This document shows, piece after piece, positions 1 through 16,190 of a DNA stretch of 21,714 bases. Position 1 is the stretch's first letter, and each line of letters opens with the position of its first letter. The stretch lies in the IMG/VR virus record IMGVR_UViG_3300029643_000012. One strand, 5' to 3'. Source of the stretch: a virus. Its lineage: Duplodnaviria > Heunggongvirae > Uroviricota > Caudoviricetes. The notes below the pieces were generated by a model that ran no database searches, was not told the origin of the DNA, and was given only the letters and a program-made list of their open reading frames with translations. Position numbers and translations under genes: made by a program.

Positions 1-1097
1 TCCCAGGTCTCGCCCAGCGTGGTGTTCACAAAGGTTTTCAGGCCGTTGGGATCTTTCAGTGCATCCAGCCAGTCATAGACTATCTGTACCCAGGTGGTGA
101 ACGGACTGTACGCCGTCCAGATATGGAACGTGATGGAGCGCGGCGGCGGAATTTCATTATCCGCGGCGCTGAAAAACGTCAGACCGTCACGGGTCCACAT
201 CCCCGTGTTTTCACAGATCCACCGCCCGTTGCTCTGGTCAAGCTCAGACTGATGGATCACGCAGCCATGATGTTCACAGAGGTAGAAAACGCTTTCGGGG
301 CTGTCCTTCTCCCATTTAAGGCCAAAAGGCGTGGATTCATCGCCAAATTTCAGATACTGCTCCTCCCCACAGTGTGGGCAGGGCACATAAAAACGCATGA
401 AATGCGCCGACTCGTTGGCCGCTTTTTCGATCTGGCAGGTGCCTTTGATTTTAGGCGTCGAGCCGCGAATGGATTTGGGCCATACAGAGCCCTCAATACG
501 TTTATCCCCAAGCAGGGTTGGCGAACCCTCTTTTTCGACATCCGGTTCGAACGAGGAAAGTTCGTCATAGCAGACCACGTCCACGGATTTTTCACGGTAG
601 TTTTTAGCGGCAGCCCCGCCCAGGCACCAGAAGCCCACGCCCGATGAAAAACGTTTCAGCGTGAGGGTATTATCACGATGTTTACGCCCAAACCACGGTG
701 CAAGATCGAGTAAAACCGGCACATCCCTGATCGTGGGTTCCACATGAGATTTCATAAAATCTTCAGCAGCAGAATCCGTGGGCTGGAAAAGAAGGCTGTT
801 GCGTGATTTATGCTCAATAAAATAAGCCTCCACTCCCAGCAACATCTTTGTATAACCAACACGGGCAGATTTAATCAGATTAACAGTGCGGATCCGGTCA
901 TTCCCCATGCTGTTCATGATGGCAACCTGAAACGGCAGTGTTTCCCACCGCCCCGGGGTGTAAGATGACTCTTTCGGAAGGTAATAATGTCGATCTGCCC
1001 ACTGAACTGTCGTCAGAGGGACAGGAATTTTTAGCGCAAGGAGGCCGGTTGCTATCGCTCCTGCAGAATTAGCCGCCCTCAGTTCGTCTGAAATCAT
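1..1097 (-). CDS. A: Terminase large subunit gpA, N-terminal part (gene runs off the left edge of the window)
   Basis: Minus-strand translation reads [46 protein letters not shown]... and, at the window edge, [16 protein letters not shown]...[10 protein letters not shown]. Both closely resemble lambda gpA as I remember it. The start at 1097 overlaps the Nu1 3' end as in lambda. The plus-strand ORF 123..647 is its antisense shadow. Confidence 0.9.
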
Positions 1098-1877: not shown

Positions 1878-2315
1878 TGAACCGCCCCGGGAATCCTGGA
1901 GACTAAACTTCCTGAGAAAGAGGTAAACAGGATGACTAAAAATACTCGTTTTTCCCCCGAAGTCCGTCAACGGGCAGTCCGTATGGTTCTGGAAAGTCAG
2001 AGCGAATATGACTCACAATGGGCGACAATTTGTTCCATTGCTCCAAAGATTGGCTGTACGCCGGAGACTCTGCGTGTCTGGGTTCGCCAGCATGAGCGGG
2101 ATACCGGGGGCGGTGATGGAGGGCTCACCACCGCTGAACGTCAGCGTCTGAAAGAGCTGGAACGTGAAAATCGTGAACTGCGCCGCAGTAACGATATCCT
2201 TCGCCAGGCTTCCGCTTATTTTGCGAAGGCGGAGTTCGACCGCCTCTGGAAAAAATGATGCCACTGCTGGATAAGCTGCGTGAGCAGTACGGGGTCGGAC
2301 CGCTATGCAGCGAAC
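1878..2315 (+). mobile_element. Truncated IS3-family insertion sequence (IS629-like): left terminus, intact orfA, first ~19 codons of orfB
   Basis: Element starts TGAACCGCCCCGGG... at 1878. orfA translation matches IS629 OrfA as remembered. The next ORF begins [19 protein letters not shown] and then diverges into a stop after 28 codons, so the element is truncated near 2315 and no right inverted repeat is present. Confidence 0.7.
1932..2258 (+). CDS. IS3-family transposase OrfA (IS629-like)
   Basis: 108 aa; helix-turn-helix N-terminus and leucine-zipper-like C-terminus ([26 protein letters not shown]) typical of IS3-family OrfA. Confidence 0.8.
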
Positions 2316-9284: not shown

Positions 9285-9982
9285 ACACTTGCTCCTTTCA
9301 GTCCTAACTTAGCTTTAATTTCTGCGATCTTCGCCAGCGCCTGAACACGATTTAGAGGTCTGCCGCCCATGACAGGAAGTTGTTTTACTGGTTCAGGTAT
9401 CGTCTCACCACGGTTAATTCGCGCTGTCATACAGGTCAGTTCATCGGCAGCCTTGCGTCGTAATTCCGCGTCAGTCAGCGCATTGGCCCGCATGTTCTGG
9501 TACAGGTTGGTAACCAGCCAGTAGTGCGCGTTCGATTTCCACGGATAAGACTCTGCATCCGGATACAGGCCTCGCTTCCGGCAATACTCGTAAACCATAT
9601 CAACCAGCTCGCTGACGTTTGGCAGTCCGGCGATAACGGATGCTTCTTCCCGGCACCATGCAACAAACTGCCCGGGTGATGGCAGAAATGGTCGATTCTG
9701 CCGACGGGCTACGCGCATTCCTGCGTTAACCTGTTCCATTGTGGTGATCCCGTTTTCCCGGAAAGCCAGAACCCACTGGCGGCGGATTTCGTTCAGTTCG
9801 TTCTGGTCACGGTTAGCCAGACTCGCCGGGAAAGTTGCCAGTAACTGGCTGAACACACCGTTGATGATCTGCGCTACCTGCTGTACCTGCGGCTTTTCGT
9901 CGTACTGTTCCGGCATGTTGTTGGCGATCCGACGCATCTGCTCACGGTCAAAATTAACCATCTGTGCGGCGATGTTTTTCAT
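9281..9982 (-). CDS. P: Replication protein P (DnaB helicase loader)
   Basis: 233 aa MKNIAAQMVNFDREQMRRIANNMPEQYDEKPQ... near-identical to lambda P as remembered. Confidence 0.95.
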   Translation of the reverse strand: MKNIAAQMVNFDREQMRRIANNMPEQYDEKPQVQQVAQIINGVFSQLLATFPASLANRDQNELNEIRRQWVLAFRENGITTMEQVNAGMRVARRQNRPFLPSPGQFVAWCREEASVIAGLPNVSELVDMVYEYCRKRGLYPDAESYPWKSNAHYWLVTNLYQNMRANALTDAELRRKAADELTCMTARINRGETIPEPVKQLPVMGGRPLNRVQALAKIAEIKAKLGLKGASV

Positions 9983-10878
9983 AAATCCACCCCGTAAATC
10001 CAGTCAGTGTTTGTCAGGTCGAGTTTTGGTTTGCAGGCTGTCACACCTGCCTGTTGCTTGTTACGGTTGATTTCGAGCTGGGTCCACTTGTCGCGGAGTT
10101 TGGCCGGGCTCAGCACGTTACCGGACCAGAAGTTGTCCTGGCATGCCCAGCGGAACAGTACACACATGTCGCGATGGTTACGTCCGTCACGTTCACGCAT
10201 CAGGCGGATATCGTTAGCCCACCCTGCAAAATTCGGTTTTCTGGCTGATGGCGCGATGGTCTTCACCATGTCAAACATCCATTCTGCGGCGGTCAGGTCT
10301 TCTGCTGTCCCCCACTTGCTGCCGCTCTGAATTGCAGCATCCGGTTTCACCACAGAAAGGTCGTTTTCTGGCTGGTCAGAGGATTCGCCAGAATTCTCTG
10401 ACGAATAATCTTTTCTTTTTTCTTTTGTAATAGTGTCTTTTGTGTCCCCCTGTTTTGAGGGATAGCAATCCCCCAATTTGAGGGATGTTTTATCCCTCGT
10501 TTTAGGGGATTTTCCCTCGTTTTGAGGGATACACCATTCTGAGATGTTTTTATTTGGTCCAAACATGCCGCCTTGCTGCTTGATAATATTCATTCTGACG
10601 AGTTCTAACTTGGCTTCATTGCACCGTTTGACGGGTAACTTTGTAATCTCGCTAAGTTGAGAATCGGTGATTCTGTCCATTGGTTTATTCCATCCATAGG
10701 TTTTACGCAGAATGGCAAGCAGCACTTTAAACTGTCGCTTGGTCAGATCTGCGCCTGAATAAGCCTCAAGCAGCATATTTGATAGTCTGGCGTAACCATC
10801 ATCGAGATCTGCCACATTACGCTCCTGTTTGGCAAAGTTACCTCTGCAGAAGTTGAGTATTTTTGCTGTATTTGTCAT
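9979..10878 (-). CDS. O: Replication initiator O
   Basis: 299 aa MTNTAKILNFCRGNFAKQERNVADLDDGYARLSNMLLEAY... near-identical to lambda O; contains the ori iterons. Confidence 0.95.
   Translation of the reverse strand: MTNTAKILNFCRGNFAKQERNVADLDDGYARLSNMLLEAYSGADLTKRQFKVLLAILRKTYGWNKPMDRITDSQLSEITKLPVKRCNEAKLELVRMNIIKQQGGMFGPNKNISEWCIPQNEGKSPKTRDKTSLKLGDCYPSKQGDTKDTITKEKRKDYSSENSGESSDQPENDLSVVKPDAAIQSGSKWGTAEDLTAAEWMFDMVKTIAPSARKPNFAGWANDIRLMRERDGRNHRDMCVLFRWACQDNFWSGNVLSPAKLRDKWTQLEINRNKQQAGVTACKPKLDLTNTDWIYGVDL
10395..10540. repeat. ori: ori-lambda: four iterons (about 10447..10531) plus adjacent AT-rich region (about 10400..10440) inside the O gene
   Basis: Repeated TTTGAGGGAT / CCCTCAAA-type units (ttttgagggatagcaatcccccaatttgagggatgttttatccctcgttttaggggattttccctcgttttgagggat), next to tcttttcttttttcttttg. 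Confidence 0.85.
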
Positions 10879-10887
10879 AATGACTCC

Positions 10888-10964
10888 TGTGGATTGATCC
10901 AGTAATGACCTCAGAATTCCATCTGGATTTGTTCAGAACGCTCGGTTGCCGCCGGGCGTTTTTT
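10888..10964 (+). ncRNA. oop: OOP antisense RNA (promoter pO TTGAGT-17-CATAAT at 10853..10881; terminator hairpin 10939..10958 plus U-run)
   Basis: Plus-strand CGCTCGGTTGCCGCCGGGCG followed by TTTTTTATT matches the lambda oop terminator as remembered; a sigma70-like promoter lies about 77 nt upstream; the RNA overlaps the cII 3' end in antisense. Confidence 0.65.
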
Positions 10965-11207
10965 ATTGGTGAGTCCATCAAGCGCATACTTAAAAGCCCT
11001 GCTAATCGGACTGATGTCTGATGCCATTCCGAAAGCACACAAGACCGAAGCAATAAATCTCCAGTCCGTTCTGCTTATCTTCGATTCATGACAGCCAATC
11101 ATCTTTGCCAGACCGCGCTGGGTAATAGCTGACAGATTGATAAGTAAATCTGTTTCTGCGCGATCAACGTCACGCTGTGATAGTTTGCTGTAACTTGTTC
11201 TTTCCAT
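10911..11207 (-). CDS. cII: CII transcriptional activator (lambda-type C-terminus, divergent N-terminal region)
   Basis: 98 aa ending ...LTNKKRPAATERSEQIQMEF, identical to the lambda CII C-terminus; the N-terminal two-thirds differ. Confidence 0.8.
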   Translation of the reverse strand: MERTSYSKLSQRDVDRAETDLLINLSAITQRGLAKMIGCHESKISRTDWRFIASVLCAFGMASDISPISRAFKYALDGLTNKKRPAATERSEQIQMEF

Positions 11208-11292
11208 TTCTTAAGATTTCCAATAGTGAATAGTTAGTTGAAAGGTATGCGTGGAAACGCATATGGCCTTAGTTGGTCAGATATCTTGGAAC

Positions 11293-11338
11293 TCGCTTTT
11301 CAGCGACGTAGGACGAATGTCCGTTGTTACAAAGAGCG
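11293..11338 (-). promoter_or_regulatory. nutR: nutR: boxA-like CGCTCTTTG (11330..11338) and boxB hairpin (11293..11306)
   Basis: Minus strand reads CCGCTCTTTGTAACAACGG...CTACGTCGCTGAAAAGCGAG: stem TCGC / GCGA around a TGAAAA loop, downstream of cro. Confidence 0.6.
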
Positions 11339-11348
11339 GATCCGCTTA

Positions 11349-11564
11349 TTAAGCGGCTTTGTGTTCCGGCGGGAACACGTCATCAAGACTGACTTTTGCG
11401 CCTAACTTGTTTAGGCACGCAACAAGAGCACGGCATGTTTTAAGGTCTGGGAAGCGACGACCAGATTCCCAATGTCCGATAGCTCCCTGTGTGCATCCAA
11501 CTGCCTTAGCAAGTGTTGTTTGAGAGATATTCAGTGACTCTCGATATTTTCGTAGGTTGCTCAT
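11349..11564 (-). CDS. cro: Cro-type HTH repressor (71 aa)
   Basis: MSNLRKYRESLNISQTTLAKAVGCTQGAIGHWESGRRFPDL...; HTH_XRE signature QTTLA...QGAIGHWESG; GGAGG ribosome-binding site upstream; divergent from cI. The track ORF 11349..11735 is an artefactual N-terminal extension. Confidence 0.8.
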   Translation of the reverse strand: MSNLRKYRESLNISQTTLAKAVGCTQGAIGHWESGRRFPDLKTCRALVACLNKLGAKVSLDDVFPPEHKAA

Positions 11565-11675
11565 ATGCCCTCCATAGTAAACACGAATAAAAAAATACAA
11601 TATGTACTTTGCGAATACAAGTAAAAATACACATTGTGCATGGATGGTTCCAGTACAGAGCGTAATAATAAGGAC
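11565..11675. promoter_or_regulatory. OR region: divergent pR (towards cro) and pRM (towards cI) with operator-like TACA/TGTA repeats
   Basis: 110 bp AT-rich spacer between divergent cro and cI; minus-strand candidate pR TTGTAT-17-TATTTT shares the spacer core AAAGTACATAT with the pL candidate; several TACAA...TTGTA dyads. Confidence 0.5.
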
Positions 11676-12335
11676 ATGAAAATGAAATGGTATGAACTGG
11701 CTAGATCCAGAATGAAAGAGCTCGGCATAACTCAAGAGAAGTTAGCCGAAGAGCTAGGTATGACGCAGGGTGGGATTGGACACTGGTTGCGCGGATCTCG
11801 TCATCCATCTCTTAGTGATATTGGTGTGGTGTTTAAATACCTTGGTATTGATAACATATCATTCAACCACGACGGGACATTTTCACCTGTTGGCGAATAC
11901 TCATCGGCCCCAGTTAAAAAACAATATGAGTACCCTGTTTTTTCTCATGTTCAGGCTGGGATGTTCTCTCCAGAACTCAGAACCTTTACCAAAGGCGATG
12001 CGGAGAGATTGGTAAGCACAACCAAAAAAGCCAGTGACTCTGCATTCTGGCTTGAGGTTGAAGGTAACTCAATGACCGCACCAACAGGTTCCAAACCCAG
12101 CTTTCCTGACGGGATGTTAATTCTGGTTGACCCTGAGCAAGCTGTTGAGCCCGGCGATTTCTGCATAGCCAGACTTGGTGGTGATGAATTTACCTTCAAG
12201 AAACTGATCAGGGATAGCGGTCAGGTGTTTCTACAGCCACTAAACCCACAATACCCAATGATCCCATGCAATGAGAGTTGTTCCGTTGTGGGGAAAGTTA
12301 TCGCCAGCCAATGGCCTGAAGAGACGTTTGGGTGA
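11676..12335 (+). CDS. cI: CI repressor (S24 LexA-like autopeptidase C-terminal domain; non-lambda N-terminal DNA-binding domain)
   Basis: C-terminus ...[46 protein letters not shown] matches lambda CI; N-terminal HTH ([23 protein letters not shown]) is a different immunity type. Start at 11676 (MKMKW) or 11682 (MKW); the second has better ribosome-binding-site spacing. Confidence 0.85.
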
Positions 12336-12374
12336 TGAAACCACTTTTATCTACAATTTACAGGGCGGTAAACA

Positions 12375-12932
12375 TTGGCAAAAATAGATGATTATCAGCC
12401 AAGCCAAGTAGAAGTTGATAAAGTACTTTATTGTAAAAAAATAGTTAACTTTTCTGGCGTTAAATGGAAACAGAAACCAAGTCGCTCTGATATGTGGCTA
12501 CAAGCCCATATCATCCCCTTGGATGAGGATTGTATACCTATACAAGGGCTAAAGTTTGAACTGAAATGGAAACCAGATCAGGATTCAGAACCTGATGACC
12601 CGATTTCTTACCCTAAAATAAATATTATTGCTTTCTATCATAACAAGAGGGTTTTCGCGGTAGATACCTATCACTTTGACAAACACACGAATAGTTACAA
12701 GGTCGATCATCCGAAGTACCAAGATATCATTTACGGTGCTCACTACCATGTATACTATGAAGAAGCTGGATACTATAGTGATAGAATAGCGTTTCCAATC
12801 GAAGATGACATAAACCCAGATGACCTGGTAGGGTATTGGAATTACTTCTGTAAACATCTGAACATAACTTACTCTGGGAGAATACCTTTACCGCTTGAAG
12901 ATGAGTCGGGGCAAATGGGGTTTGGAATATGA
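12375..12932 (+). CDS. Unrecognised protein, 185 aa; first gene of a two-gene operon in the rexA-rexB position
   Basis: Uninterrupted 185-codon ORF immediately downstream of cI on the same strand; AT-rich; acidic, Tyr/His-rich (YHFDKHTNSYKVDHPKYQDIIYGAHYHVYYEEAGYY); no family recognised. Confidence 0.65.
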   Translation: MAKIDDYQPSQVEVDKVLYCKKIVNFSGVKWKQKPSRSDMWLQAHIIPLDEDCIPIQGLKFELKWKPDQDSEPDDPISYPKINIIAFYHNKRVFAVDTYHFDKHTNSYKVDHPKYQDIIYGAHYHVYYEEAGYYSDRIAFPIEDDINPDDLVGYWNYFCKHLNITYSGRIPLPLEDESGQMGFGI

Positions 12933-13681
12933 TGTGCTCAACAGTGATCTCACAACTAGGTTTCGAATGCCATCCAATAGGCAAGACCTTGAGAATTATC
13001 AGTCCATTCACTTACTGTGATGATGGAGAGCATGTCGGTGCCTTTATCCGTGAAGTCAATGGTAGGTATTTAGTTAGTGACAGATGCGATGCCTTAATGA
13101 ATATGGAGGCAAGAGGGATCTCGCTTACCAAAAAACGACTTGATGAGATACGACAATTACTGCTTAAAGAAGGCGCAGAACTCAATGCTCGAGGAGAAAT
13201 CATTGCTTGGGCAACAGAAAAGGATGTCGGTGCGATTACATCGAACATAATTAGAGCTGGTATACTCGCATCAACTTTGTCGTTAGACTGGTATCAGCCA
13301 GTTCAAGCTGAAAAGTTTGAAAGTATGGTTATTGATTATCTATATCACACAGAGCTTAGAGACGCACTTTCTCTTCGTGAAAACGTATATGGCTTGAGTG
13401 GACATCAAATTACCGTCCCTGTAACAATAAAAACCGACATACCTAAATACGTTTTTACATCAAGCGTGAAACACGGAGGAAGCTGGAATAGTGCTTACTC
13501 ATTGCTTGGGAAACTAATTGATCTTAAAGCTTCAAGTGAGGAGTATAACAACAGATTTGTTGTTATAGACAGCGAAGCAATTGGTGATCAAATGCAACAA
13601 CTCTCCTTACTCTTCCATGAATCAAGCCAAGTTCTACCATTCTCCAAAAGAGAGACTTGGGTTAAGAGACTTGCAGCATAA
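12929..13681 (+). CDS. Unrecognised protein, 250 aa; second gene of the two-gene operon
   Basis: ATG at 12929 overlaps the upstream stop (ATGA); 250-codon ORF followed by a rho-independent terminator; no family recognised. Confidence 0.65.
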   Translation: MMCSTVISQLGFECHPIGKTLRIISPFTYCDDGEHVGAFIREVNGRYLVSDRCDALMNMEARGISLTKKRLDEIRQLLLKEGAELNARGEIIAWATEKDVGAITSNIIRAGILASTLSLDWYQPVQAEKFESMVIDYLYHTELRDALSLRENVYGLSGHQITVPVTIKTDIPKYVFTSSVKHGGSWNSAYSLLGKLIDLKASSEEYNNRFVVIDSEAIGDQMQQLSLLFHESSQVLPFSKRETWVKRLAA

Positions 13682-13685
13682 TACA

Positions 13686-13712
13686 ACCCGGCCTCAGCGC
13701 CGGGTTTTCTTT
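13686..13712 (+). terminator. Rho-independent terminator ending the cI / two-gene operon
   Basis: ACCCGGC-CTCAGC-GCCGGGT followed by TTTCTTT, directly after the stop at 13681. Confidence 0.7.
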
Positions 13713-13899
13713 GCCTCACGTTCGCCCACCTAAAAACACATAACCAATTATATTTATTGAAAAATAAATAGATGCAACCCACTAAACCACGCAATTCTGA
13801 TCTCTCCTTACATCGCCGAGGCAATACATCCACGCTAAAAAACAACACTATTAAATACAAAGCGTTATAAAAAACCACGCCAACTTACAACAAATTGTA

Positions 13900-13928
13900 T
13901 TGATCTTGTAAAGTACATATCGTACTAT
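13900..13928 (+). promoter_or_regulatory. Candidate pL promoter (TTGATC-17-TACTAT) with operator-like dyads
   Basis: Sigma70-like hexamers with 17 bp spacing about 45 bp upstream of nutL boxA; TACAACAAATTGTA dyad immediately upstream. Confidence 0.5.
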
Positions 13929-13974
13929 TTAACCGTCAGCAGGACGCTGGAAGCCAAATGGAACAGACTGGCAG

Positions 13975-14019
13975 GCTCTTTAAACAACGTCGACTCTCGA
14001 CTACGTGGCTGAAAAGCCA
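13975..14019 (+). promoter_or_regulatory. nutL: nutL: boxA GCTCTTTAA (13975..13983) and boxB hairpin (14006..14019)
   Basis: GCTCTTTAAACAACG...CTACGTGGCTGAAAAGCCAG: same architecture as nutR, with a compensatory stem change (GGC/GCC here, CGC/GCG in nutR). Confidence 0.65.
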
Positions 14020-14117
14020 GATCACCCAACCACATAAGCTGTGGGATGCAATGCCGAAGCAACCGTCTCAGGAGGAGCTTCGAGATTGCATCGCCAAAGT
14101 TTATTCGGGAGGAATCC

Positions 14118-14390
14118 ATGTCCAGAAAAACAGAATTTAAAGGCACCGCAGCTTCTCGCCGTAGAGCTCGTCGCGCAAATCTGCAAAGTCAGGAGGCGAT
14201 CAGCTCCGACAAGCTACACAGGCCAACCCCTTCACGAGTGGTCTTGCAATGCAAGCTCAAACCAGCAATGAGAGCAGAAGTGATAACTCTGACAACGTTG
14301 ACCAGAAAATATGAAGGTTCAACTTGTCTTCCGAACGTAGCTCTTTACGCGGCAGGCTACCGGAAATCAAAACAACTGACGGCGAGATGA
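14118..14390 (+). CDS. N: N-type antiterminator (arginine-rich motif near the N-terminus)
   Basis: MSRKTEFKGTAASRRRARRANLQSQ...: arginine-rich RNA-binding motif like the N proteins of P22 and phage 21; GGGAGG ribosome-binding site; directly downstream of nutL. The track ORF from 14046 is an upstream extension. Confidence 0.7.
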   Translation: MSRKTEFKGTAASRRRARRANLQSQEAISSDKLHRPTPSRVVLQCKLKPAMRAEVITLTTLTRKYEGSTCLPNVALYAAGYRKSKQLTAR

Positions 14391-14406
14391 TAAATTCATT
14401 TGCTAA

Positions 14407-14988
14407 TTACTTGTTTTTGCCATGCTTATCCTGAGCGATAAGTTCATCCATAAGGCTGTCTGCCTTCCCGGCAAACCTAATGTAGCACTCATGTCTATAG
14501 CTTTCAGGGATAACGAAACGGTCGGTATCAGGATATCCAACAGCAGGAGGCCTTCGAACGAGGAGTCCTTTTTTGAGCAATGAAATTGATTCATGAGCGC
14601 CCTTTTCCGTTTGTAGCTGGTTATTAGCGGCTACAGCGAATGCCAAATACGCTCTTTCTCCAAGAGTTAACGAATCAAACAAATCTTGCACATATTTTTC
14701 TTCTTTAGATTTGCGCTTCTGAGCAGCGAATACCTCAATTCTTTCAGTCACAGCGTGATAAGCGGAATTAACAACGCCGTTAAGCACATAGCTAACGCAA
14801 AACAACAGGATGTAATACATCCAGTAATGAGGAAGGATTTCTGGATTATGCAGGTTTATCCATTCTTTTACGCTTACCGGCATAACAATAATCAATATGA
14901 TCAGGATGATTAGCATATGAATCAACTGTTTAAGTGTCATTCCTTGCAGGAAAAAATGCATTAGTTCCTGCCACCATGAGTTGTTCAT
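14407..14988 (-). CDS. sieB: Superinfection exclusion protein SieB
   Basis: 193 aa MNNSWWQELMHFFLQGMTLKQLIHMLIILIILIIVMPVSVKEW...; N-terminal membrane segments; matches lambda SieB as remembered; convergent with N as in lambda. Confidence 0.8.
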   Translation of the reverse strand: MNNSWWQELMHFFLQGMTLKQLIHMLIILIILIIVMPVSVKEWINLHNPEILPHYWMYYILLFCVSYVLNGVVNSAYHAVTERIEVFAAQKRKSKEEKYVQDLFDSLTLGERAYLAFAVAANNQLQTEKGAHESISLLKKGLLVRRPPAVGYPDTDRFVIPESYRHECYIRFAGKADSLMDELIAQDKHGKNK

Positions 14989-15953: not shown

Positions 15954-16025
15954 GCGCGGCGTTACCGCATACCAATTACGCTTCACTCGAGGCGTTTTTC
16001 GTTATGTATAAATAAGGAGCACACC

Positions 16026-16190
16026 ATGCAATATGCCATTGCAGGGTGGCCTGTTGCTGGCTGCCCTTCCGAATCTTTACTTGAACGAATCACCCGTAAA
16101 TTACGTGACGGATGGAAACGCCTTATCGACATACTTAATCAGCCAGGAGTCCCAAAAAATGGATCAAACAATTATGGCTATCCAGACTAA
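16026..16190 (+). CDS. cIII: CIII (FtsH inhibitor that stabilises CII)
   Basis: Hand translation from the ATG at 16026: [54 protein letters not shown], matching lambda CIII. Not in the ORF track (under 60 aa). Confidence 0.85.
   Translation: MQYAIAGWPVAGCPSESLLERITRKLRDGWKRLIDILNQPGVPKNGSNNYGYPD

Follow-up and report, generated by a model that had tools for sequence, protein, structure and literature searches.

Two hairpins encoded on opposite strands of a 21,714-nt stretch of phage DNA (Caudoviricetes; hereafter the window) are very probably the N-utilization sites nutR and nutL of a common lambdoid E. coli prophage of the VT2-Sakai type. The compensated base-pair change that separates their boxB stems is real, but in this phage family it is an old trait that has become fixed and is already on record, and the sites themselves are ordinary and known. 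We draw this identification from the sequence and folds of the two elements, their gene context, homology to described nut sites, covariation among relatives, and the co-variation of the boxB loop with the ARM of the N protein.

The window holds a lambdoid immunity region that is 100% identical to that of phages ev017 and ev207, the minus strand carrying pR-cro-nutR-cII-O and the plus strand cI, pL, nutL and N (Table 1). The genes cro, cII, O, cI and N were placed by the open reading frame map, Pfam matches and the annotation of the identical phages. The end of cro lies just 5' of nutR, which falls between cro and cII on the pR transcript, while nutL sits ~40 nt past the pL start and ~100 nt before the N gene on the pL transcript. 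Each early transcript carries one site on its transcribed strand, in the orders pL-nutL-N and cro-nutR-cII. This is where nut sites must lie, and the two have positional homologues in H-19B, 933W and epsilon34. A consensus promoter scan left both pL and pR below threshold, with only 8 of 12 positions matching, and both were therefore placed from the operators annotated in AP005153; the pL call rests on homology and on this annotation, in which one operator, oL1 (13911..13927), is matched exactly and overlaps pL. We infer that the hairpin at the tR1 position is part of a terminator region overridden by N; HK97 retains this region, epsilon34 has the corresponding hairpin annotated as putative tR1, and nutR/tR1 of H-19B is a Rho-dependent terminator (PMC3526286).

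Table 1. Early promoters, genes and nut-site elements of the immunity region, in window coordinates.
Feature	Positions	Strand	Evidence
tR1-position hairpin UAUGCGU-UUCC-ACGCAUA, between nutR and cII	11246..11263	-	fold
nutR boxB UCGCU-GAAA-AGCGA	11293..11306	-	covariance model score 38.8 bits; same 14-mer is putative NutR boxB in epsilon34 EU570103
nutR spacer hairpin GGAC-AUUC-GUCC	11311..11322	-	MFE -4.1 kcal/mol, z -3.1; final C is the C of CUACG
nutR boxA CGCUCUUUGUAACAAC (boxA-like stretch CGCTCTTTGTAACAACG at 11338..11322; boxA element CGCUCUUUG)	11323..11338	-	read directly; kept in relatives
cro, 71 aa, HTH, first gene of the pR transcript	11349..11564	-	Pfam HTH_3, E = 4.2e-12; Cro in PhiR57_1 and VT2-Sakai annotation
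oR operators, divergent pR/pRM region	11593..11667	.	exact matches to operators annotated in AP005153
pL: -35 TTGATC, 17-nt spacer, -10 TACTAT	13900..13928	+	hexamers read directly
nutL boxA GGCUCUUUAAACAAC (boxA-like stretch GGCTCTTTAAACAACG at 13974..13989; boxA element GGCUCUUUA)	13974..13988	+	contains rrn-type consensus GCUCUUUA
nutL spacer hairpin GUCGA-CUC-UCGAC	13989..14001	+	MFE fold
nutL boxB UGGCU-GAAA-AGCCA	14006..14019	+	covariance model score 41.6 bits
N antiterminator gene, 90 aa, N-terminal ARM MSRKTEFKGTAASRRRARRA	14118..14390	+	Pfam PF25694 N_peptide, E = 1.5e-32

The boxB coordinates proposed in the initial annotation are exactly those of the two 14-nt hairpins, and the 20-mers quoted there are present letter for letter: CTACGTCGCTGAAAAGCGAG at 11292..11311 (-) for nutR and CTACGTGGCTGAAAAGCCAG at 14001..14020 (+) for nutL, neither of which is expected by chance (100 shuffles). 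Folding, suggested there as a check, gave stable hairpins at both sites (nutR -6.5 kcal/mol, z -2.7; nutL -7.1 kcal/mol, z -3.3), each with a 5-bp stem, a 4-nt GAAA loop and a U-A closing pair, and CUACG stands directly 5' of boxB in both. Loop and flanks are identical, as had been claimed, and the sole difference between the two boxBs is stem pair 2, C-G in nutR and G-C in nutL. By our own rough estimate, the chance that two substitutions in 20 positions hit one of the five stem pairs and keep pairing is ~0.01-0.02, and the compensatory swap is consistent with selection for an RNA stem and, as the initial annotation had it, supports the calls for pL, N and the direction of early transcription. 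A covariance model of the nut site found exactly two scoring sites in the window, on opposite strands and one per early transcript; a search of 11150..14200 against Rfam 15, which covers curated families only, returned no match at E <= 1.

The boxA-like elements reported upstream of both boxBs can be read directly from the sequence, with a CGCUCUU(U)A-like element 5' of boxB at nutR and at nutL. Of the boxA references quoted in PMC2724277, rrn UGCUCUUUA and lambda CGCUCUUA, the nutR boxA matches both. Each site also has a spacer hairpin directly 5' of boxB, flanked by ACAAY and (C)UACG, and the core formed by spacer hairpin and boxB is the minimum free energy (MFE) structure at both sites (-11.7 and -12.0 kcal/mol; z -2.7, -3.25). 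At nutR this hairpin has the sequence that oligo RS663 targets in H-19B as the 'nutR spacer'. In the nutL spacer of relatives the stem is kept and the loop varies (CUC, ACUC, ACAC, AUC, GCAC), and other lineages have wholly different stems in this slot. The covarying spacer hairpin, a GAAA tetraloop in place of a lambda-type pentaloop, and a loop size that tracks the ARM are refinements beyond the initial annotation.

Among relatives the covariation is strong and lends independent support to the stems. In a gap-free, N-padded alignment of 16 distinct nut sites, whose boxB rows were picked by requiring pairing, 96% of cells were paired against 71% in shuffles, a score reached by 0 of 500 shuffles; both sides change at 7 of the 10 pairs, and the spacer helix covaries at 4 of its 5. 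The pairing-based choice of rows is offset by a pattern scan that left the outer two boxB pairs unconstrained: both of these pairs formed in 78 of 80 nut-context sites as compared with 16 of 72 out-of-context matches. Across relatives, boxB pair 1 occurs as U-A, A-U, C-G and G-C, pair 2 as G-C, C-G and A-U, and the closing pair as U-A, C-G and U.G. The nut leader is present in 763 of 5,426 complete E. coli genomes (~14%). The swap seen in the window is not particular to it, being fixed in all ~80 relatives with a VT2-Sakai-type N.

One might read the swap as functional, tuning N affinity or hairpin stability at each site or avoiding a perfect inverted repeat between the divergent operons. No phage examined has the same stem at nutL and nutR, at least one compensated pair always setting them apart, and the two predicted stabilities differ slightly, which would fit such a role. 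The gap is only 0.6 kcal/mol, however, the positions that vary lie well away from the loop and closing pair contacted by lambda N, and many stems coexist with one ARM, as in drift under a purely structural constraint. Moreover, the two sites travel in different modules, nutR with cro/cII and nutL with N, and their separate descent accounts for the stem difference. We regard a functional swap as improbable.

A second possibility is a long-range helix formed by boxA and the 3' half of boxB that would regulate nut function, in which the base just before GCUCUUU (C in nutR, G in nutL) would co-vary with the swapped base. This pairing is the MFE structure of the 66-71-nt contexts at both sites, the pre-boxA base is complementary to the swapped base in the majority haplotype (81 nutL and 78 nutR copies), and 'alternative NUT RNA structures' appear in the title of Neely & Friedman 2000 on H-19B. 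Yet these longer folds do not significantly outscore shuffles (z -1.3, -0.9), several functional-type sites have no boxA core (H-19B nutL, epsilon34 nutL), and the pairing fails in five distinct variant haplotypes (the L036 type, POCJ13 nutL, Citrobacter nutL and nutR, and Tatumella nutL). Given these failures we dropped the helix and its "triple covariation" as a coincidence, and consider it very unlikely.

There is scarcely any chance that the hairpins, although short G+C-rich inverted repeats in a two-hairpin layout that we take to be superficially like the HK022 put RNAs, are intrinsic terminators or attenuators, repressor-bound DNA palindromes or protein-independent put-like antiterminators: they are followed by GUUCCAAG and GAUCACCC with no U-run and were not called by a sense-strand terminator scan, and their loop and linker are most conserved while the stem arms vary, the reverse of what an operator would show. 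A U.G closing pair in one relative can form only in sense-strand RNA, and on both strands the hairpins are oriented with transcription. The phage also encodes a cognate N with an ARM and carries boxA, and read-through at the homologous nutR of H-19B depends on N. We therefore rejected these readings and retain the two elements as probable nut sites.

As nut sites, they can be set beside those of H-19B, 933W and HK97, whose N has 127 aa. These phages share with the window boxA, ACAAY, a spacer hairpin, (C)UACG and a 5-bp boxB, as well as an identical nutR spacer hairpin GGACAUUCGUCC and nutR stem UCGCU/AGCGA; the nutR-tR1-cII leader of HK97 is nearly identical to that of the window, and the 933W RefSeq record has nutL and nutR features at equivalent positions. 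The boxA, spacer and boxB of H-19B nutR (defined by the antisense oligos RS662-664 of the N/NusA footprinting work, PMC3526286 supplement) match the window's nutR position for position, and in H-19B the spacer and boxB are protected in footprints by N plus NusA/G, and read-through at nutR/tR1 needs N (PMC3526286). Their N is homologous (~41% identity, same Pfam family, same C-terminus), but the window's 90-aa N has a central deletion relative to it, and the window ARM AASRRRARRA is two residues shorter than their SRSRRRERLKAKA. The boxB loop is a GACAA pentaloop there and a GAAA tetraloop here, the nutL stem and nutL spacer hairpin are of other sequence, and H-19B nutL is without boxA, whereas the window's nutL has a near-consensus one.

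Salmonella phage epsilon34 (EU570103) has GAAA tetraloops, the same short ARM type and, annotated as 'putative NutR - boxB', a 14-mer identical to the window's nutR boxB. It differs in its 120-aa N with an H-19B-like body, its nutL stem (CGGCU/AGCCG) and spacer hairpin (GAUUC/GAAUC), and the absence of a boxA core at nutL and nutR. Lambda shares the placement of the sites (after pL and before N, after cro and before cII), its boxA, an ARM-bearing N, the pL leader motif UCAGCAGGACGC, and a boxB of five base pairs, closed by U-A, whose G-purine-A loop takes up a GNRA fold. Unlike the window, lambda caps its boxBs with GAAGA/GAAAA pentaloops from which one base is extruded, and it has a short unstructured spacer of 8-9 nt in place of a spacer hairpin, and two identical boxB stems, nutL and nutR differing instead in the loop. 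In P22 and phage 21 the principle is alike, an ARM peptide recognizing a small hairpin, and P22 gp24 shares the C-terminal 24 residues of N, but the loops differ, a CUAACC hexaloop in phage 21 and GACAA in P22. To our knowledge, the layout of CUACG linker and spacer hairpin is absent from both. The P22 boxB, GCGCU-GACAA-AGCGC, is the H-19B/HK97 nutL boxB sequence (P22 loop: PMC12550061).

The ARM-bearing N encoded beside nutL is 98.9% identical to VT2-Sakai N, and in an alignment with the N proteins of H-19B, 933W and epsilon34 its ARM aligns with the H-19B ARM RSRRRER, which has been defined by mutagenesis. Loop size tracks the ARM: the short-ARM N occurs with a tetraloop boxB in all 21 distinct haplotypes and the H-19B-type ARM with GACAA in all 4, an association that amounts to about one split between two clades and few independent events. 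Within one phage the loop class is always common to nutL and nutR, and in natural chimeras the ARM and the nut type stay linked, as in epsilon34, with its H-19B-like N body, and a Tatumella prophage whose N has a lambda-N-like C-terminal half. With GAAA and AASRRRARRA in place of the GACAA pentaloop and SRSRRRERLKAKA, the window's nut/N pair lies outside the H-19B specificity class and is a sister subtype, the VT2-Sakai/epsilon34 type.

The N-boxB pairs that we found cited as structurally solved have the GNRNA pentaloop of lambda, the GACAA pentaloop of P22 and the CUAACC hexaloop of phage 21. Lambda N prefers a GNRNA pentaloop, and the true tetraloop of the window departs from this best-studied model; the openly readable literature yielded nothing specific on Sakai-type nut sites or a natural GAAA boxB. 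We tentatively suggest, as a possibility that we do not favor, that N of the VT2-Sakai/epsilon34 type recognizes a natural canonical GAAA tetraloop without an extruded base, with the 1-nt loop indel and the ARM indel acting as a specificity switch. Sakai-type and H-19B-type pairs might then be orthogonal despite near-identical nutR modules, and NusA engagement might be changed as well.

By analogy with known systems, the leftward pR transcript, which runs through cro, and the rightward pL transcript, which heads for N, would each present boxA, the spacer hairpin, (C)UACG and boxB in that order. Through its arginine-rich N-terminus, N would bind the loop of boxB and the U-A pair that closes it, while NusB/NusE would bind boxA and NusA the spacer region. 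The RNA-protein complex would stay with RNA polymerase, which could then pass the terminators tR1 and tL and reach cII-O-P and the recombination genes. Binding and antitermination by the window's own N/nut pair are thus proposed by extension from H-19B, the source of the direct biochemistry, which has an N of only ~41% identity and a GACAA loop on boxB. The boxB stem would drift by compensated changes because only its shape matters, and the nutL and nutR copies come from two old lineages that differ by the C-G to G-C swap.

While the basic biology of nut sites is textbook, the sites have annotation value, as they fix the direction and extent of two early operons and confirm pL and the true start of the 90-aa N. 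They also assign the prophage to the VT2-Sakai type of immunity and antitermination, which Stx2 phages of O157:H7 share. Tetraloop and pentaloop boxBs, each with its own ARM variant, form together with the domain-swap chimeras a natural series that could serve the study or engineering of orthogonal N/boxB tethering pairs.

Both N antitermination sites of the window, nutR and nutL, carry a boxB hairpin closed by a canonical GNRA tetraloop. The nutR 20-mer (CTACGTCGCTGAAAAGCGAG) and the nutL 20-mer (CTACGTGGCTGAAAAGCCAG) each occur once in the window, with no copies of either expected in shuffled sequence. Each boxB folds into a 5-bp stem with a 4-base GAAA loop, UCGCU-GAAA-AGCGA in nutR (-6.5 kcal/mol, z -2.7) and UGGCU-GAAA-AGCCA in nutL (-7.1 kcal/mol, z -3.3). 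The initial annotation had placed these at 11293..11306 and 14006..14019, the exact bounds of the two 14-nt hairpins, and had described a compensatory stem change between them; indeed, the sole mismatch between the 20-mers lies at stem pair 2, C-G in nutR versus G-C in nutL, and both stems still pair. The boxA-like elements it had read 5' of the hairpins are likewise present, and resemble the boxA of rrn (UGCUCUUUA) and of lambda (CGCUCUUA) (PMC2724277). It overlooked the tetraloop and an extra hairpin in the spacer, lying at both sites between ACAAY and (C)UACG (nutR, GGAC-AUUC-GUCC; nutL, GUCGA-CUC-UCGAC). The minimum free energy (MFE) structure of the 36-37-nt core comprises both hairpins at either site (-11.7 and -12.0 kcal/mol, z -2.7 and -3.25).

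Escherichia phages ev017, ev207, PhiR57_1 and PhiR63_2 match the surrounding region (10800..14600) at 100% identity, and O157:H7 Stx phages match it at ~95% in two blocks; the window runs in reverse of the lambda map. Gene order and mapped operators place pR such that nutR lies on its transcript, in the order cro-nutR-cII, while the mapped oL1/pL and N place nutL ~40 nt downstream of the pL start, on its transcript, and ~100 nt upstream of N. This is the classical placement of the nut sites in lambda.

Features of the immunity region and its nut sites (window coordinates)
Feature	Coordinates	Strand	Basis or remark
P		minus	
O	9979..10878	minus	
cII	10911..11207	minus	Pfam Phage_CII
nutR 20-mer	11292..11311	minus	
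nutR boxA-like CGCUCUUUGUAACAAC	11338..11323	minus	sequence reading
cro	11349..11564	minus	
oR operators	11593..11667		exact matches to operators annotated in Stx1 phage record AP005153
cI	about 11640..12335	plus	
Two ORFs at rex position	12375..13681	plus	
Intrinsic terminator	13685..13706		ends cI operon just upstream of pL
pL promoter TTGATC-17-TACTAT	13900..13928		overlapped by oL1
oL1	13911..13927		exact match to operator annotated in AP005153
nutL boxA-like GGCUCUUUAAACAAC	13974..13988	plus	sequence reading
nutL 20-mer	14001..14020	plus	
N	14118..14390	plus	Pfam N_peptide, E = 1.5e-32

Several further elements lie along these transcripts. The two ORFs in place of rexA/rexB share a transcript with cI and hit the PADLOC candidate defence system PDC-M24, with E = 4.8e-4 for PDC-M24A (weak) and E = 4.7e-10 for PDC-M24B. 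Pfam adds DUF6978 (weak) and DUF1828; the ORFs are likely a prophage-encoded exclusion or defence pair, ended by the intrinsic terminator at 13685..13706. A perfect palindrome, CCGCUUAAUAAGCGG (11342..11356), extends across the stop codon of cro, immediately 5' of the nutR boxA, and is weakly flagged on the plus strand by a terminator scan; about half of the relatives carry it and the others have unrelated …GCAUAAGUAACC instead, which assigns it to the cro module. The pL leader begins with UCAGCAGGACGC (13937..13948), a stretch also present in the pL leader of lambda (L103, about 1065..1080, minus strand) and nearly matched in 933W and epsilon34, despite differing immunity sequences around it. 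Rfam places Lambda_thermo, the cIII thermoregulator, at the cIII start (16013..16071, plus strand, 88.5 bits), and an ALIL pseudoknot (2213..2312, plus strand, 75.9 bits) where ORF 1932..2258 ends, suggestive of an insertion sequence with programmed frameshift in that part of the prophage.

The stem swap is not confined to the window: UGGCU/AGCCA at nutL and UCGCU/AGCGA at nutR recur in all of the ~80 IMG/VR loci that have this N. Diverged prophages of Citrobacter, Kluyvera, an Enterobacteriaceae genome and Tatumella, reached through N alignment, added the boxB stems AGGCU/AGCCU, CGGCU/AGCCG, UAGCU/AGCUA and UGGCC/GGCCA and the spacer stems GGCC/GGCC, GAUUC/GAAUC and GGUGA/UCACC. Pairs were counted on a gap-free alignment of 16 distinct nut sites, with boxB rows pre-selected for pairing, in which 96.3% of cells were paired as against 70.7% after shuffling (0 of 500 shuffles attained the observed value), the covariation score was 0.624 versus 0.146, and 7 of 10 pairs had both sides changed versus a shuffled mean of 4.6; sliding the register left 13-44% of cells paired. 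Pair 1 of boxB appears as U-A, A-U, C-G or G-C and the swapped pair 2 as G-C, C-G or A-U, pairs 3 and 4 are invariant, and the closing pair is U-A except for one C-G and one U.G. Because of the pre-selection, an unbiased scan was run with the pattern CTACGNNGCTGAN{1,2}AAGC, which leaves both outer stem pairs free: both outer positions were paired in 78 of 80 sites in nut context, with 7 stem types, versus 16 of 72 out-of-context, mostly chance, matches. A covariance model built from the alignment found just nutL and nutR in the window (41.6 and 38.8 bits), the runner-up scoring 11.2 bits and lacking a boxB.

Across all loci with both sites, the nutL and nutR boxB stems are never identical in any phage, and their lineages are separate (nutR, UCGCU or UAGCU; nutL, NGGCU, GCGCU or UGGCC). 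The N specificity classes have the spacer hairpin and stem of nutR in common, the loop alone switching between GAAA and GACAA. Three loci with N and nut of the E. coli-phage type, on short contigs, bear non-enterobacterial labels (L090, 97% identical to that type, and L096, contigs 'MAG: Segatella copri'; L094, Xanthomonas pisi, 394 bp), most likely through binning or assembly contamination.

We read standard N/nut processive antitermination as most likely operating at both window sites. For the stem swap, the best reading is that two copies constrained by structure alone have drifted; these would have descended separately, nutL moving with the N module and nutR with the cro/cII module. An alternative boxA:boxB helix is the MFE structure of longer folds, and the base preceding boxA is complementary to the swapped stem base, but this complementarity breaks in 5 distinct variant haplotypes and the helix is a weak candidate. 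A functional role for the swap is similarly weak, given a stability difference of merely 0.6 kcal/mol at positions far from the loop. Terminator, operator and put-like (HK022-type antiterminator RNA) readings were rejected: no U-run follows the hairpins, the loop is conserved more than the stem arms, hairpin orientation tracks transcription, and the window encodes a cognate N.

This N shares 98.9% identity with VT2-Sakai N and ~41% with the N of H-19B, 933W and HK97. The GenBank records of VT2-Sakai and Stx1 phages give N 114 aa from an ATG equivalent to 14046, 26 nt past boxB. The 90-aa start at 14118 is favored by the alignment of the family, by a Pfam match covering residues 1-90 and by a ribosome-binding site (GGGAGGAAUCC), and the longer annotation is probably over-extended. 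Among all collected loci, a short arginine-rich motif (ARM), [AS][AS][SGT]RRRx[RHQ]R.., occurs in 21 distinct N-terminal haplotypes with tetraloops (GAAA; GCAA once), and the H-19B-type ARM SRSRRRE[RL]LK[AV]KA in 4 haplotypes with GACAA, an association that comes down essentially to a single split separating two clades and thus represents few independent events. Loop class is the same at nutL and nutR within every phage. ARM and nut type also stay together in two natural chimeras: epsilon34 N, an H-19B-like body carrying the short ARM, and the N of a Tatumella terrea JCM 8887 prophage (L101, 5001..5320), whose N-terminal ~40 aa belong to the Sakai/epsilon34 ARM type and whose C-terminal half is lambda-N-like (…IDLSDLFAYQ…WYSKPGERGITCTGRQK…), with two-hairpin GAAA nut sites. 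This co-variation, kept in the chimeras, supports the ARM reading the boxB loop, as in lambda and P22.

Homologous sites have been annotated and studied before. In the RefSeq record of 933W, nutR and nutL are annotated at positions homologous to those of the window, and the epsilon34 record labels the window's nutR boxB 14-mer, TCGCTGAAAAGCGA, "putative NutR - boxB". The H-19B nutR of Muteeb et al. 2012 (supplementary oligo table: boxA CATAAGTAACACCGCTATTTTCAC, spacer CACAATGGACATTCGTCCTACG, boxB TACGTCGCTGACAAAGCGAGTCCC; PMC3526286) matches the window nutR position for position, with identical GGAC-AUUC-GUCC spacer hairpin, CUACG linker and stem, and differs mainly in its loop, GACAA versus GAAA; HK97 has a nut pair of the H-19B type. 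The N-boxB complexes we found cited have a GNRNA pentaloop (lambda), a GACAA pentaloop (P22) or a CUAACC hexaloop (phage 21), in contrast to the tetraloop here. Two Salmonella phages, 103203_sal5 and vB_SosS_Oslo (L088, 4870..4900, and L089), have an aberrant nutL boxB, GCUC-CGUCAAC-GAGC, with a 4-bp stem and a 7-nt loop without GNRA, alongside a nutR with a GACAA loop and U.G closing pair and an H-19B-like ARM (TSRARRRERLKAKA); this nutL may be a degenerate site or a further specificity variant.

The sole mildly novel angle, which we hold tentatively and consider doubtful, would be a distinct specificity class in which a natural tetraloop boxB goes with a shortened ARM; we found no description of such a class in the papers covered, and one may already exist. 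Rfam holds no family matching the window nut sites, which reflects its curation and not novelty. Biochemical work exists on the homologous nutR, a public record annotates the identical boxB, and 763 of the 5,426 complete E. coli genomes carry the leader. The window nut sequences are identical to those of long-published phages, and the finding is correct and ordinary; the nut sites serve annotation.
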